A stretch of DNA of 48,290 nucleotides from Candidatus Poribacteria bacterium. Lineage in GTDB: Bacteria; Poribacteria; WGA-4E; UBA9662. Positions 27,799 through 33,433 of the stretch are shown here, one piece after another. How positions within the stretch are numbered: position 1 is the stretch's first letter; each line of letters begins with the position of its first letter. The stretch lies in assembly GCA_036339735.1 (NCBI GenBank), contig JAYZAL010000015.1, positions 1 through 48,290 on the forward strand. The letters run 5' to 3'. Both the position numbers and the translations under genes were made by a program. The notes beneath the pieces are model-generated. The model was not told the origin of the DNA. It did not search any database and saw only the letters and a list, made by a program, of their open reading frames with translations.

Positions 27799-28920
27799 AT
27801 GAAAATTGAAAGTATTCAGTCGTACTTAGTTGCTAACGGCTATATTGTGCAAATTCGGACCGACACTGGAATAACGGGATTAGGACAGACAGCTTACTGG
27901 GGTTACCCAGAGGCAATAGAAGCTATAGTCAAACGATTTGAAAATTACCTGATCGGTCAAAATCCACTTCGAATTGAACATCATTGGCAGTACCTATACC
28001 GTATGAGTCCATTCAAAGGAAATGCTTTGTCAGGTGCTATTAGTGCGATTGATATTGCGCTCTGGGATATTAAAGGGAAACACCTCGATGTTCCAGTTTG
28101 GGAACTTCTTGGCGGTAATTGTAGGGATAAAATCAGACTACATTTACTAGCTGATCAACCTAACCCAGAAGCTATGTACCAAGCAGCCAAGTCAGCAGTG
28201 AGTGAAGGGTTCACCGCCATTAAATTTGACCCTCTAGTGGATGGTTTTCAAAATATGACACAGGATCAGATGATTAGGTCCGTACGAGACATCGTTGCTG
28301 CGGCTCGTTCAGGTGGTGGTTCCGGTCTAGATTTGATTGCTGAAGTACATCGAAAACTAAGTCCGATGAACAGCATTGCATTAGCCGAACATTTAGCAGA
28401 ATTTAACTTGTACTTTATTGAAGATCCTATTCAAATTGACAGTATTACTACGCAAGGTGAAATGGCGAAACGGATCAATATCCCGATCGGTAATGGTGAA
28501 CGATTAACGACTATCTGGGAATTTCGTGAATTGCTTCACTTTGGCGGTCCACAATATGTTCGTCCTGATGTGGCTTTAGCTGGTGGGCTTACACATTGCA
28601 AGAAAATTGCTGCTATTGCAGAGTCTTACCATAGTGCAGTGGTAACTCACAACTTCTTGGGACCACTGATTACTGCGGCGTCGATTCACCTTGATACCAG
28701 TATTCCGAATTTTATCACTCAAGAATATACCAAAGACGACGAATCTGAACAGTATGATTTTTTTACTACTTGCTACAAAAGAGAAGGCGGTTATATTCCA
28801 ATTCCCACCGCTTCTGGCTTAGGGGTGGAATTGGATGCTAGCCGACTACCTCCGTTTGAGTCGATGAATACTGCGGAAACTTTACTACGTGAAGATGGAT
28901 CGGTTGCTTATTCAGTCTGA
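27799..28920 (+). CDS. Mandelate racemase/enolase-superfamily acid-sugar dehydratase (DgoD-like)
   Basis: 'SAIDIALWDIKGK', 'LLGGNCRDKIR', 'FIEDP', 'GERL', 'THN', 'QEY'. Confidence 0.88.
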   Translation: MKIESIQSYLVANGYIVQIRTDTGITGLGQTAYWGYPEAIEAIVKRFENYLIGQNPLRIEHHWQYLYRMSPFKGNALSGAISAIDIALWDIKGKHLDVPVWELLGGNCRDKIRLHLLADQPNPEAMYQAAKSAVSEGFTAIKFDPLVDGFQNMTQDQMIRSVRDIVAAARSGGGSGLDLIAEVHRKLSPMNSIALAEHLAEFNLYFIEDPIQIDSITTQGEMAKRINIPIGNGERLTTIWEFRELLHFGGPQYVRPDVALAGGLTHCKKIAAIAESYHSAVVTHNFLGPLITAASIHLDTSIPNFITQEYTKDDESEQYDFFTTCYKREGGYIPIPTASGLGVELDASRLPPFESMNTAETLLREDGSVAYSV

Positions 28921-29006
28921 TTTAACGTAAGTAGATTGTTAACCAAATTTTGGTATGTTACTCTTAATCTCCTTGGATTGCCTACCAAATCATATGAAAG
29001 GAAGAG

Positions 29007-29504
29007 TTGGTCAAAATGAAGCAACAAAGATATTTTTCTAAGATGTACCTAGCAAAGAAACTGTGTCTGTTAGCGGTATTTTTTTTGGCGGTGGTACCGA
29101 CAATTCTGGCTCAACCTAAGCGAGCAACAGTTCATGAGTTAAAAAAAATAATGGACAAACAGGAAAATTTCCTAATCGTCGATGTACGGGGCCTGAAGTC
29201 GTATGAGAAAAGCCATTTGCCTGGTGCAATATCTTTACCTATCCGTGAACTGGTCGATCGCCATCGTGAGCTACCAAGAAATGAGGTTATTGTTTTTTAT
29301 TGTAGCTGACCCGCTGAAAACTCAAGTGTCCGGGCGACACAGATTTTATTGCAGAACGACTTTGGGTTTCAGCCACAGTTACTCCAGGTTCTTAAGGGTG
29401 GTATCTCCGCTTGGCGAGATGCAGGTTTCACGCTGGAAAGTGGCTTAGCCGTTGAGTTCAAGAATAAGAAATTAGCGTTATGGGCCAAGTTAAAGTACAG
29501 GTAG
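29007..29504 (+). CDS. Exported rhodanese-domain selenoprotein (Sec at TGA 29307-29309, CxU motif)
   Basis: Rhodanese N-half 'IVDVR ... HLPGAISLP ... IVFYCS', then TGA, then an in-frame C-half 'PAENSSVRA ... VLKGGISAWRDAGF' to TAG 29502-29504. A SECIS-like hairpin follows the TGA. Start could be TTG 29007, ATG 29016 or ATG 29043. Confidence 0.85.
29317..29347 (+). promoter_or_regulatory. Bacterial SECIS-like stem-loop
   Basis: GUGUC(29326-30)-loop CGGGC-GACAC(29336-40), extendable by CU/AG and AAAA/UUUU. The apical loop starts 21 nt after the UGA, with G at loop position 2. Confidence 0.65.
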
Positions 29505-29533
29505 ATAATAATTTAAGTCAGGATTACGTATAG

Positions 29534-30448
29534 ATGTCTAACTATATTAACAGACCAGCTTACCGGCTGGGTGTGATCGTCGACGGAATTAGTCGAAACC
29601 TTGAACATACTCTGTCCGTCATGAACGAGTTCCAAATAAGCTACGCTGAACTCCAATATCTAACAATGCCTTCGGGTAAAGATAAAGAAGTCGGCGACAT
29701 GACATCAGAGGAAATTGATTGGATAAAGCGACTAGTCACAGCCCATGGAATTCAGATTTCTTGTATATCACGCCATATATTTAGTGGTTTAGCTGTAGCA
29801 GAGGTCACACTCAACGACAATGCATACCAGCAACAGATTACTGACCTTAAAAAGTGTATTCAAATGGCAAAGATGCTTGATTGTCAACTCGTTCGTATAA
29901 TGAGTTTTCGTAAAGAGATGATCCTTTTCGGTGCTCAAGGGGCAGAGGAGTGGATTGTAGCTAATGGAGCTTGGGACAAATTAGTGACTTTGCTAGAATT
30001 ACCAGTTCAAATTGCTGAAGACGAAGATATTACTTTGGTAGTAGAGACAGGTAATGGATCAATGATTACTTCAGCTTATTTAGCACGAAAATTGATTGAT
30101 CAGCTTGGATCTGATCGACTGAAGGTTCTTTGGGATCCGTGTAATAGCCTATATTGTACTGAAAAAGCATATCCAGATGGCTACCAATGTTTACGAGACG
30201 GATACTTGGGACACATACATCTCAAAGATGCACGAATTGATATTGCACAAGCGATGGTTGAATTTGTGCCGTTCAATACGGGTGATATGGCCTCCTACCT
30301 TTCTGGTTTGGCTGAAGCACTGAAACTAGACAATTACAGTGGGGTAATTTCCTTCGAGAGTGTGTATCGCCCCAAGCCTAATGCCAGTTTTGAGGATGGA
30401 TTTCGATCATCTATCAATGCTTTTCAGAATTTGTTTGCTACTAAATAG
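29534..30448 (+). CDS. Sugar-phosphate isomerase/epimerase (xylose-isomerase-like TIM barrel)
   Basis: Metal-ligand motifs 'LVVETG', 'LWDPCN', 'HIHLKD', 'YSGVISFES'. Confidence 0.85.
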   Translation: MSNYINRPAYRLGVIVDGISRNLEHTLSVMNEFQISYAELQYLTMPSGKDKEVGDMTSEEIDWIKRLVTAHGIQISCISRHIFSGLAVAEVTLNDNAYQQQITDLKKCIQMAKMLDCQLVRIMSFRKEMILFGAQGAEEWIVANGAWDKLVTLLELPVQIAEDEDITLVVETGNGSMITSAYLARKLIDQLGSDRLKVLWDPCNSLYCTEKAYPDGYQCLRDGYLGHIHLKDARIDIAQAMVEFVPFNTGDMASYLSGLAEALKLDNYSGVISFESVYRPKPNASFEDGFRSSINAFQNLFATK

Positions 30449-30582: not shown

Positions 30583-31623
30583 ATGGAATTATTGAAAGAA
30601 CTTTGTGAGGCTTCAGGCATTCCCGGATTTGAAGGCCGGATTCGTGATATAGTCAGGCGAGAACTTGACCCAATAGTGGATGAGATCTCGGTTGATGCTA
30701 TGGGAAATATGATCTGTGTCAAGCGAAAACCTGGTGCTTTGAAGGTAATGATTGCTGCTCATATGGATGAAATTGGTTTTATGGTGAGCAACATAGATGA
30801 TAAAGGTTGGATTCGGTTAGTACCTTTGGGGGGACATGATCCTCGTAATATGGTCGCTCAACACGTACGGATTTGTACAGAAGATGGGGACCTAACTGGT
30901 GTATTATACCCAGGATTAAAACCTCCTCATATCCAAAAAGATAGCGACCGTAATAAGAAACCAGAAGTTAGCGACTTTGTAGTCGACCTGGGTTTGCCAG
31001 CCGATATAGTAAAAGAAAAAGTATCAATTGGTACACCAGTGACCATGAGGCAAAACTTTCTAGAGCTTGGTGATTGTGTTTCTTGTAAATCGATGGACAA
31101 TCGGGTAGCAGTCTATACCATGATTCGTGCAATGCAGTCCACTAGTGAATTTGGTTTTGAAACCTATGCGGTAGCAACCTCTCAAGAAGAAATTGGATTA
31201 CGAGGGGCTACGACCAGTGCAAATAGCATCAATCCAGATATTGGTATTTGTCTCGATACCACTCTGGCAACCGATATTCCGGGGGTTTCTGGACATGAGC
31301 AGATAACCAAACTGGGAGAAGGCGCTGCCATCAAAATATTTGATTCCTCAGCTATCCAGCATCCTCAATTGGTTAAATGTCTTCGACAATTAGCTGACAA
31401 AAGGGATATCAAATGGCAACACGAAATCCTACCACGTGGGGGTACTGATTCTGCTGCTATGCAAAAATCAGGGTCAGGAGTTCCGGTTGCCACAATCTCA
31501 GTACCGACTCGATACATTCATACTACTATTGAAACTGTTCACAAAGAAGATTTACAAGGGGCAGTGAATTTACTTACTGCATTTTTAGAGGAAGGACACC
31601 AAGTCCAAATTAATTTTGAATAA
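30583..31623 (+). CDS. M42 family aminopeptidase
   Basis: 'AAHMDEIGF', 'MDNR', 'QEEIGLRGA', 'GGTDS', 'PTRYIHT'. Confidence 0.92.
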   Translation: MELLKELCEASGIPGFEGRIRDIVRRELDPIVDEISVDAMGNMICVKRKPGALKVMIAAHMDEIGFMVSNIDDKGWIRLVPLGGHDPRNMVAQHVRICTEDGDLTGVLYPGLKPPHIQKDSDRNKKPEVSDFVVDLGLPADIVKEKVSIGTPVTMRQNFLELGDCVSCKSMDNRVAVYTMIRAMQSTSEFGFETYAVATSQEEIGLRGATTSANSINPDIGICLDTTLATDIPGVSGHEQITKLGEGAAIKIFDSSAIQHPQLVKCLRQLADKRDIKWQHEILPRGGTDSAAMQKSGSGVPVATISVPTRYIHTTIETVHKEDLQGAVNLLTAFLEEGHQVQINFE

Positions 31624-31639: not shown

Positions 31640-33433
31640 ATGTGTGCCAATATCTCATCCCATAGTACTCCTTCTTGGGACTTAACTGATCTATACGCTG
31701 GGATTGATGACCCCAAGATCGAAGAAGATTTATCTCATATAGTTATTGACGCTGCTGCCTTCGAAACAAGGTACAAGGGTCGAATTGCACAACCTGAACT
31801 AACGGTTGAGCTGTTGCTTGAAGCTATTCAAGCATACGAAAAACTACTGGCCGACCAGTATCAGCCACAAGCCTTTGCCCATTTGCTGTTTAGTACTGAT
31901 ACTACAAAACCCGAAAGAGGTGCGTTACTTCAGCGCACACGTGAGATTAATTCTCAAGCTTCGACCCATCTGATTTTTTTTGATCTAGAAATAGGTAAGA
32001 TTCCAGCCGATACATTTAGTCGGCTTTCTGCTGATGTGCGCTTGTCTGACTACAACTACTACGTTCGGCACCAGCGAGATTTAGCTAAGCACAATCTTAC
32101 TGAAAGCCAAGAGAAAGTTTTAGAAGAGACTTCTAATAGTGGTGGACGTGCTTTTTCCCGCTTATTTACGGAAACCACCTCTCGTATTGTTTATCCAATT
32201 GACGGTCAGGAACTCACACAGAGTCAGTTATTGGTTCGTTTTCAAGAACCAGATAGAGAACGTCGACGTGTCGCTGCTCACGTTTTCTCGGAGCAGCTAG
32301 AAAATAATAGTCATTTGTTAACTTTTATTTTTAACACGCTACTGCATGAAAAACATGTTATAGATCGCTTAAGAAATTTTGAGCGACCAGAATCTTCTCG
32401 CCATTTGAGTAACGATATTGATCAATCGGTGGTCGACACTATGGTTGAAGTTACCGTTAACAACTTCGATATTGTCAGTAATTATTATCAACTCAAACAG
32501 CAATTGTTAAATATAGATCAGCTGACTCATTACGATCGCTATGCTCCTATTTCGGATACACAAACTGAATTTGATTTCGGTCAAGCACAAACGATTATCA
32601 TGGAAGCTTTTGCTGATTTTTCTCCTCAGCTAGCCAATATAGCTGAACCATTTTTCAGTCAAAATTGGATTGACGCGAAAGTTACATCAGGCAAACAGGG
32701 TGGTGCTTACTGCATGGGAGTTACGCCTCAACATCATCCTTACGTTTTTATGAATTACAACGGTAGTCTGAGAGATGTCACAACATTGGCGCATGAGTTG
32801 GGGCATGGAATTCATGACATTTTGGCCAATCAACAAAACCTACTAAATTATCATCCCGTTTTGCCTTTAGCTGAAACAGCCAGTACGTTTGCCGAAATGT
32901 TAGTTTTTGACAAATTACAAAACCAACTTACCTCCGCACAAGATCAGTTGGCACTACTGTGTAGTAAGACTGAAGATACGTTCGCCACTGTTTTCCGCCA
33001 AATTGCTATGTTCCGGTTCGAACGGTCTGCCCATGATTTACGACGGAATAGTGGTGAACAAACCGTTACTGCATACGGTGAATTATGGCAAAAAAAACAG
33101 CAGGAGATGTTTGGTGATTCACTAAAACTTGGCGCTGAGCATAGTTACTGGTGGCTTTACATTCCTCATGTATATCGGACACCATTCTACGTTTACGCGT
33201 ATGCCTTTGGCGAGTTATTGGTTTTGTCGTTATATGCTCAATATCGGAAGGAAGGAGACGCTTTTGTCTCCCGATATTTTGATTTGTTGAGAGCTGGTGG
33301 ATCCGATTCACCAGCTAAGCTGGTTTCAGCAGTTGGCTTCGATATTGAAGATCCCGACTTTTGGCAAAGTGGATTTGACCTGATACGTCGTCGTGTGGAT
33401 TTAGCCACTGAATTAGCCGGTGGTATTGAGTAG
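31640..33433 (+). CDS. M3B oligoendopeptidase F
   Basis: 'WDLTDLY', 'GKQGGAYC', 'TLAHELGHGIH', 'LAETASTFAE', 'PFYVYAYAFG'. Confidence 0.92.
   Translation: MCANISSHSTPSWDLTDLYAGIDDPKIEEDLSHIVIDAAAFETRYKGRIAQPELTVELLLEAIQAYEKLLADQYQPQAFAHLLFSTDTTKPERGALLQRTREINSQASTHLIFFDLEIGKIPADTFSRLSADVRLSDYNYYVRHQRDLAKHNLTESQEKVLEETSNSGGRAFSRLFTETTSRIVYPIDGQELTQSQLLVRFQEPDRERRRVAAHVFSEQLENNSHLLTFIFNTLLHEKHVIDRLRNFERPESSRHLSNDIDQSVVDTMVEVTVNNFDIVSNYYQLKQQLLNIDQLTHYDRYAPISDTQTEFDFGQAQTIIMEAFADFSPQLANIAEPFFSQNWIDAKVTSGKQGGAYCMGVTPQHHPYVFMNYNGSLRDVTTLAHELGHGIHDILANQQNLLNYHPVLPLAETASTFAEMLVFDKLQNQLTSAQDQLALLCSKTEDTFATVFRQIAMFRFERSAHDLRRNSGEQTVTAYGELWQKKQQEMFGDSLKLGAEHSYWWLYIPHVYRTPFYVYAYAFGELLVLSLYAQYRKEGDAFVSRYFDLLRAGGSDSPAKLVSAVGFDIEDPDFWQSGFDLIRRRVDLATELAGGIE

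Follow-up and report, generated by a model that had tools for sequence, protein, structure and literature searches.

The locus described here raises a simple question: does the TGA at positions 29307-29309 end a truncated rhodanese, or is it read as selenocysteine (Sec) in the middle of a longer one? The window, by which we mean the whole stretch of DNA that was analysed, comprises 48,290 nucleotides of contig JAYZAL010000015.1 (assembly GCA_036339735.1, Candidatus Poribacteria bacterium), and the assembly that was searched is a 107-contig draft of 4.32 Mb that is 92% complete. Under translation table 11, an open reading frame (29007-29309, + strand) runs to ...IVFYCS and then the TGA at 29307-29309; past this codon the same frame holds 64 further sense codons (PAENSSVRATQ...LKGGISAW...AKLKYR) and is closed by TAG at 29502-29504. 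An initial annotation, made from the DNA letters alone, had taken this stop, the 64 codons behind it and a hairpin 16 nt further on as signs of a hidden selenoprotein, and every one of these coordinates is right. Our results suggest, at a probability of about 0.86, that 29016-29504 is one gene and encodes a genuine Sec-containing single-domain rhodanese, in which the UGA at codon 98 is read as Sec. This reading follows from a conserved UGA with a conserved frame downstream, from the hairpin, from the Sec machinery present in the lineage and from homologues with Cys at the same column. The parts of the locus are listed below.

28999-29004, + strand: Shine-Dalgarno-like AGGAAG, 11 nt before the ATG at 29016 (read from the sequence)
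29016-29504, + strand: entire coding sequence with read-through, 162 codons and the TAG, codon 98 being the predicted Sec
29016-29111, + strand: predicted signal peptide of the secretory (Sec) type, MKQQRYFSKMYLAKKLCLLAVFFLAVVPTILA, read by eye, with a proposed cleavage before QPKR
29127-29420, + strand: rhodanese domain, unbroken over the TGA (PF00581, AlphaFold2 model, Foldseek)
29301-29303, + strand: TGT, Cys96, the canonical rhodanese catalytic position, which is TGA (Sec) in U-S-U relatives
29307-29309, + strand: TGA in the active-site loop, at position +2, probably decoded as selenocysteine (Sec98); conserved in orthologues and unchanged in contigs
29326-29340, + strand: hairpin resembling a selenocysteine insertion sequence (SECIS), with a 5-bp stem GUGUC/GACAC and a 5-nt loop CGGGC; paired in all orthologues compared
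29421-29501, + strand: C-terminal tail past the domain, with a conserved A-V-x-x-K-x-K-x-x-x-L-W-x-x-I/L-K (alignment A2, columns 113-127)
29502-29504, + strand: TAG stop codon, the true terminator (read from the sequence and frame)

The length of about 165 residues first proposed holds when counted from the TTG at 29007; it becomes 162 from the ATG at 29016, which seems the likelier start because the database proteins P0002 and P0003 begin there (MKQQRYF) and because AGGAAG stands upstream at the distance given.

A TGA and a downstream frame kept by relatives

A search of 61 related genomes found an in-frame TGA in all 38 rows with E <= 6.4e-26 (7 with one, 31 with two), aligned on both sides of the codon, and the next rows, at E values of at least 3.2e-12, were TGA-free paralogues. 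Orthologues align over residues 1-165 of the read-through protein P0001 (counted from TTG 29007), with the TGA inside. Among 20 aligned orthologues the codon column of 29307-29309 is TGA throughout, while that of 29301-29303 is TGA in 14, TGT in 5 and TGC in 1; all 20 of the fetched loci show [C/U]-S-U-x-A-E. Most orthologues (loci L024-L037 and L090-L095) are of the U-S-U form, in which a TGA takes the place of the catalytic Cys too, 6 nt ahead of the invariant codon, and a single hairpin lies downstream of the two. We ran a profile of these 20 orthologues against 176 genomes of the phylum, where 48 rows, the same 20 and 28 new ones, reached at least 107 bits. These rows come from 47 of the 176 genomes and every one carries an in-frame TGA, nine having one and 39 having two (U-S-U). 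The best TGA-free row (75.7 bits) belongs to a different rhodanese paralogue, with YCRGPYC at the loop. Eight further loci that were fetched read C-S-U, C-T-U, C-G-U or U-S-U, and family f2, which with 112 genomes forms the bulk of the phylum sample, yielded weak paralogous matches only. In one congener (G002, contigs C66 and C80) the gene is present twice, at 86% and 62% identity to the window protein and with one TGA in each copy; the loop of the second copy is C-G-U.

Identity to the window protein across 19 orthologues is 39-89% upstream of the motif and 40-86% downstream of the TGA; judged from these alignments, purifying selection is as strong on the downstream half as on the upstream one. 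That relatives would keep both the TGA and the frame after it, as was expected at the outset, is therefore borne out. The codon is also stable in independent data. Contigs of metatranscriptome libraries from three studies cover 29244-29521, 29275-29476 and 29231-29511, one DNA run covers the whole stretch, and TGA stands unchanged at 29307-29309 in the contigs of all four runs, which answers the call for a check of the reads at this codon. Two variants among the run contigs, 29243 C>A and 29477 G>A, are third-position changes and synonymous in the read-through frame. The runs that hold the stretch are marine or seawater metagenomes, and Candidatus Poribacteria bacterium is the label given to the cluster relatives of the truncated rhodanese and of three other window proteins. 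These data bear on the possibility that the TGA is a nonsense mutation in an ordinary Cys rhodanese, or an error of sequencing or assembly. Only one base separates TGT or TGC from TGA and the assembly is a draft in 107 contigs; however, with a TGA in every strong match of 47 genomes and in four independent runs, a conserved downstream frame and natural variants that are synonymous, we consider a pseudogene or an error to be scarcely credible.

The codons past the TGA complete a rhodanese fold. Pfam Rhodanese PF00581 matches the read-through protein at residues 41-138 (E 4.3e-16; 59.6 bits against a gathering cut-off of 22.2) and crosses the TGA, and the Cys is first in the loop between the central strand and the next helix, as befits a member of this family. 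An AlphaFold2 model built from the 20 orthologues has a mean predicted local distance difference test (pLDDT) score of 89.3 and a predicted template modelling score (pTM) of 0.83, and presents an unbroken rhodanese fold over the TGA. In this model the loop C-S-U-P-A-E occupies residues 65-70, between the strand at 60-64 and the helix at 71-82. The top Foldseek matches of the model are the single-domain rhodaneses 3nhv, 3tp9 and 3ilm (E 1e-9 to 6e-8; template modelling scores 0.75-0.77). In a profile alignment with solved rhodaneses, the first Cys of the loop corresponds to the catalytic Cys of domain 2 of 1yt8 (NCAGRTRS) and of 3nhv (YCWGPAC); by this column match Cys96 is the canonical catalytic residue and the TGA lies at +2, with Ser as residue 97 between them (F-Y-C-S-U-P-A-E). 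The 97-aa product that ends at the TGA lacks the loop past C-S, the next helix and the GG..W strand, and is for that reason an incomplete rhodanese fold. Beyond the domain, V115, K118, K120 and W125 of the tail are invariant or almost so in alignment A2; the tail has pLDDT below 50 at model residues 115-125 and no family match.

Relatives with Cys in place of the proposed Sec place the UGA at a Cys position, as first suggested. One of them, L038 from a metagenome-assembled genome of Spirochaetota, is a 160-aa protein with a YCSCPAEE loop, an N-terminal hydrophobic segment and 39% identity; it was the one match of a motif search of genome contigs back-translated with Cys codons, a search blind to TGA forms. 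The others, P0009 (YCSCPNE) and P0014 (YCACPNE), carry a fused DedA membrane domain rather than a signal peptide and have no Sec. Together these CxC-P-x-E rhodaneses show the same loop, with Cys for Sec, at 33-39% identity. A phmmer search of the whole library returned mostly multi-domain rhodaneses and added few single-domain relatives.

The hairpin and the selenocysteine machinery

The hairpin is made up of GTGTC (29326-29330), CGGGC (29331-29335) and GACAC (29336-29340), with 16 nt from the UGA to the stem and 21 nt from the UGA to the loop; in U-S-U relatives the first UGA lies 27 nt from the loop. RNAalifold recovers the 5-bp helix from 20 sequences. When 28 sequences (24 distinct) are compared, 120 of 120 cells are paired and two pairs show compensatory changes, pair 2 being UA in 22 and CG in 2, and pair 4 being CG in 15, UG in 7 and UA in 2. 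None of 500 shuffles reached the observed pairing or covariation score of the 28 sequences, and slid controls were all far lower. The nucleotides are also unusually constrained: the 11 codons that follow the motif have a third-position identity of 0.79, versus 0.42 in the other 109 columns, a value reached by none of 100,000 random sets of 11 columns. In this stretch AGC, GAA, AGT and GCG are each found in 20/20 orthologues, while invariant Arg, Val, Pro, Ser and Gly elsewhere in the gene use three to four codons each. The compensatory changes swap residues on both arms (GTC/ACA, coding for Val and Thr, versus GCC/GCA, coding for Ala and Ala). As they alter amino acids on both sides, they argue for selection on the RNA.

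A 2026 review (PMC13188914) sets out a model for bacterial SECIS (bSECIS) elements, in which the loop has 3-9 nt, the stem 4-16 bp and the UGA-to-loop distance 16-37 nt, a G stands within the first two positions of the loop (as a rule with G or U after it) and the minimum free energy (MFE) is -7.5 kcal/mol or lower. The window hairpin has a 5-nt loop, a 5-bp stem, a G at loop position 2 and a spacing of 21 nt, and loop positions 2-3 are G followed by G or U in 28/28 aligned sequences. The orthologue hairpins have a median of -7.8 kcal/mol alone and -12.2 kcal/mol over 48 nt, and most relatives satisfy the energy limit of the model. An Rfam scan of 28900-29600 (E <= 10) returned two chance matches only, a miRNA and a long non-coding RNA. 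The view of the hairpin as a Sec element has thus gained from its conservation, its compensatory changes and its fit to the published ranges of loop, stem, loop G and spacing, and we regard it as strongly supported that the predicted element at 29326-29340 is of the type that binds SelB.

Two observations on hairpins in other lineages may be recorded here. In many U-S-U lineages (L024-L037) a further small hairpin, with a GGAA loop, is predicted by RNAfold in the stretch from the second UGA to the SECIS hairpin. Its sequence is GGC-GGAA-GCC in one family and CGC-GGAA-GCG in another, a difference that resembles covariation; it shares nucleotides with the invariant Ala-Glu codons, and the genus of the window lacks it. 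A distant member of the family, L088 (G063:C368), has the hairpin GCGCC-AGGUC-GGCGC.

The initial annotation had made its case depend on Sec machinery in the lineage, and most of this machinery was found. In this genome selA (579 bits), selB (362 bits) and selD (359 bits) all score above cut-off; the part that stayed missing here is selC, the gene for tRNA-Sec, to which we return below. Across the phylum selA is above cut-off in 163 of 176 genomes, and among the 47 genomes with the rhodanese gene it is present in 46, the remaining one being 79% complete. The genome's own selD gene (C70:27515-28441, locus L009) offers a direct comparison: it contains a single in-frame TGA (C70:27545, motif C-A-G-U), trailed by AGAUC-CGGGC-GAUCU, with the same loop and the same 9-mer, UCCGGGCGA, as the rhodanese hairpin. 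The spacing from UGA to loop is 16 nt in selD versus 21 nt in the rhodanese gene. The 9-mer occurs eight times in the assembly, counting both strands. A 5-bp stem with a closing C-G pair and a CGGGC loop is found at three sites on both strands of the 4.32 Mb, namely in the rhodanese gene, in selD and at C11:28002, the last of which has no open frame on its strand. Genome-wide scans for a TGA followed by a hairpin likewise gave this gene and selD as the only credible coding matches, and the other four matches look non-coding. In relatives, selD has one TGA in 30/30 rows, and its loop is CGGGN in the 23 of 30 loci picked up by motif search, with stems GAUC/GAUC or GCUC/GAGC.

The shared hairpin is also relevant to the proposal that the UGA is decoded by a standard tRNA as Trp or Cys, or that TGA is a sense codon in these bacteria, so that the full-length protein would be made without selenium. 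The database proteins P0048 and P0058 are written W-x-W at the motif, as this proposal would have it. However, the DNA that matches P0058 (L095, genome G008) has TGA at both motif positions, which indicates that the W arose from gene calling under another code. TGA serves as an ordinary stop in this genome, where it ends 404 of the 1838 frames of at least 300 codons, and the rhodanese genes of U-S-U relatives themselves terminate at a third TGA that acts as a stop. With Cys rather than Trp in this column of the homologues, and with Sec machinery in the lineage and a SECIS-like hairpin common to selD, decoding without selenium is very improbable. Public gene calls for the family vary more widely than these two entries: some are truncated at the TGA, some have W at the TGA, P0043 is a separate 51-aa C-terminal piece and P0005 is out of frame.

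Points that count against selenocysteine

Several results weigh against the reading of the UGA as Sec, and they concern the hairpin, tRNA-Sec, expression and one relative. The hairpin of the window is weak, at -5.8 kcal/mol alone, -7.2 kcal/mol over 48 nt and -8.1 kcal/mol over 60 nt, compared with the published threshold of -7.5 kcal/mol. A 70-nt fold around the UGA is no more stable than expected (z = 0.22; 102 of 200 shuffles were at least as stable), and the MFE structure of these 70 nt does not contain the hairpin. With 20 sequences alone the covariation was not significant, since 39 of 500 shuffles reached the observed score. The neighbouring genes differ between families and are conserved only within them, and this context lends no functional support. 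The contigs of RNA libraries begin at 28993 and 29005 and finish at 29511 and 29521, near the limits of the read-through gene; as DNA can occur in such libraries, these end points hint only weakly at a transcript. Finally, the metagenome homologue P0065, compared here as a protein sequence, has C-S-R at the motif and may be a relative with neither Sec nor Cys at +2.

The weakness of the hairpin would suit an alternative in which termination dominates, so that the 97-aa protein is the main product, Sec read-through is rare or selenium dependent and the UGA works as a selenium switch. Sec insertion in bacteria competes with release factor 2, and gene callers all predict the 97-aa form. However, the 97-aa product does not have a complete rhodanese fold and the downstream half is as constrained as the upstream half. 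In 39 of the 48 phylum rows, moreover, the canonical Cys is itself a UGA, and termination there would remove the catalytic residue altogether. We therefore think termination as the dominant outcome improbable, although less so than decoding without selenium, and keep to Sec insertion as the better account of the UGA.

The lack of a tRNA-Sec gene in the assembly is the other main difficulty. Rfam model RF01852 gave a best score of 45.2 bits in the assembly (cut-off 47), and this match is a tRNA-Ser. ARAGORN listed 35 tRNAs in the assembly, with none for Sec, Cys, Glu, Ile or Lys, from which it follows that the tRNA set of the assembly is incomplete. The tRNA-Sec gene of the congeners and the 2 kb before it found no blastn match in the assembly; of this region the 3' flank alone was matched, at 80% on C49. 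By contrast, tRNA-Sec scores above cut-off (67.6-78.5 bits) in 40 of 40 relatives searched, both congeners included, which makes 40 of 41 genomes when this one is counted. In the two congeners no more than about 25 and 580 bases separate the gene from a contig end. Distances of up to a few hundred bases to the end of a contig were seen in several draft genomes of the phylum, in G001:C180 (L058) and G002:C73 (L057), and also in G003:C74, G004:C457 and G030:C78; they suggest that the surroundings of tRNA-Sec are hard to assemble, perhaps because of a repeat or an integration site. The absence of selC here is most likely an assembly gap, even if the gene's presence in this assembly is one point on which the case for Sec formally fails.

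Relatives, export and possible function

The best NCBIfam match of the window protein is NF041203, 'rhodanese_LYCAU, rhodanese-related (seleno)protein', over profile positions 8-124 of 126. As an equivalog of this family the protein fails on score, with 62.8 bits against a curated cut-off of 115 bits. NF041203 is also the best family for 20 of 20 orthologues, all below the 115-bit cut-off (best orthologue E 3.2e-21). The CxC homologues have the same best model and score 51-65 bits on it, and P0065, with its C-S-R, scores 70.6 bits. Like NF041203, the protein has one rhodanese domain, about 125 residues long, in which the canonical position is Cys and position +2 is Sec (C-x-U). Its loop reads Y-C-S-U-P-A-E versus L-Y-C-A-U in NF041203, a family motif taken from the family's name and from a table of PMC13188914. 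That review distinguishes five rhodanese-like selenoprotein forms, of which form 3, with CxU and one Sec, is NF041203; the strings 'UxU' and 'Poribacteria' do not occur in it. PMC9312934 includes 'COG0607 form 2 (CxU)', a CxU family with one Sec. UxU 'rhodanese-related sulfurtransferase' selenoproteins were described in 2007 from deltaproteobacterial symbionts of Olavius algarvensis (PMC1976440). In that description the second Sec lies two residues from the first, which is the same motif as the U-S-U of 39 of the 48 phylum rows; the Olavius form belongs to another phylum and is likened here by the description of its motif rather than by alignment columns, and the window gene itself has C-S-U. 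A literature search on Poribacteria with selenocysteine or selenoprotein, which did not extend to supplementary sequence lists, gave no report of this protein, and a hydrogenase paper alone connected the phylum with selenoproteins. The gene belongs to a divergent sister clade of the CxU/UxU rhodanese selenoprotein family that has already been described.

Rhodaneses of known structure or function are more distant. GlpE, PspE, BH2092 (3nhv) and Alr3790 (3ilm) have the same fold and a catalytic Cys in the same column, but no second Cys or Sec at +2 of their loops. The GlpE and PspE models give only 27 and 23 bits on the window protein (cut-off 102). PspE is a periplasmic protein, as is proposed for the one studied here.

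An extracytoplasmic location was part of the initial proposal and remains probable. The N-terminus MKQQRYFSKMYLAKK, which supplies a basic n-region, is followed by 17 hydrophobic residues that end in I-L-A ahead of QPKR, with a small residue at -1, and the orthologues, also read by eye, share the layout x-x-A before (Q/E/N)P(E/K)R. On these features the protein is probably exported via a type I signal peptide; the N-terminal segment could instead be an uncleaved membrane anchor. In the distant member L088 a lipoprotein-like N-terminus (...M-S-F-G-C-G-K) replaces the A-x-A signal peptide.

How the protein might be made and work can be outlined as follows. SelB, carrying GTP and Sec-tRNA(Sec), would bind the hairpin while the ribosome holds the UGA in its A site, and Sec would be inserted; in the U-S-U relatives both UGAs, 27 and 21 nt away, would depend on one hairpin. 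The N-terminal signal peptide would send the protein to the periplasm, where the loop C96-S-U98-P-A-E could form a Cys/Sec redox pair (Sec/Sec in relatives). One residue of the loop would accept a sulfane sulfur or selenium atom, or else attack a substrate in its oxidised form, after which the other would resolve the intermediate by way of a selenenyl-sulfide (or diselenide) bond. On this view the protein would act as a thiol/selenol oxidoreductase or a carrier of sulfur or selenium and not as a plain thiosulfate:cyanide sulfurtransferase. We propose the redox pair because all members seen in the phylum have Sec at +2, with the canonical position alternating between Cys and Sec; as a mechanism it is tentative, with chances a little short of even. 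A more specific version, unlikely if all of its parts must hold together, would have the invariant Sec at +2 rather than the canonical Cys as the working nucleophile, leaving the canonical position to switch freely between Cys and Sec. A persulfide carrier fold would in that case have turned into a selenol-based oxidoreductase with a three-residue loop bridged by Se-S or Se-Se, acting outside the cytoplasm on, for example, polysulfide, selenite or arsenate, and the single 15-nt hairpin of the U-S-U forms would recode two UGAs 6 nt apart.

The genes next to the rhodanese in the window are these:

27799-28920: galactonate-dehydratase-like protein of the enolase superfamily (275 bits, cut-off 311)
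29534-30448: 304-aa open reading frame with no NCBIfam match
30583-31623: M42-type aminopeptidase
31640-33433: 597-aa open reading frame

The first three recur in the same order in congener loci L019 and L020, and no connection of these neighbours with the rhodanese is evident. One genus has, in four loci (L027, L028, L030 and L036), a 490-aa class-I FAD pyridine-nucleotide-disulfide oxidoreductase (GGDCLWTGCVPSK) that begins five codons after the rhodanese stop; it stays under all NCBIfam cut-offs, with NF004991 as its best match (479 bits, cut-off 620) and the MerA and lipoamide dehydrogenase models short of theirs as well.

In summary, we provide evidence that a rhodanese gene of Candidatus Poribacteria probably reads an in-frame UGA as Sec in its active-site loop. 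CxU and UxU loops are known from rhodanese selenoproteins described earlier, and the kinds of selenoproteins known are unchanged by this gene. As the initial annotation foresaw, standard annotation truncates it: public records hold the 97-aa form, named 'hypothetical protein' or 'rhodanese-like domain-containing protein', and the catalytic half and the selenium are hidden from those who use them. The gene adds an apparently unreported selenoprotein clade to Candidatus Poribacteria, a phylum in which the use of Sec, judged by selA, is near-universal. The clade also supplies a natural series of Cys and Sec at the canonical position beside an invariant Sec, which could help to show what advantage Sec has over Cys and how far SelB tolerates changes in the spacing between UGA and SECIS.

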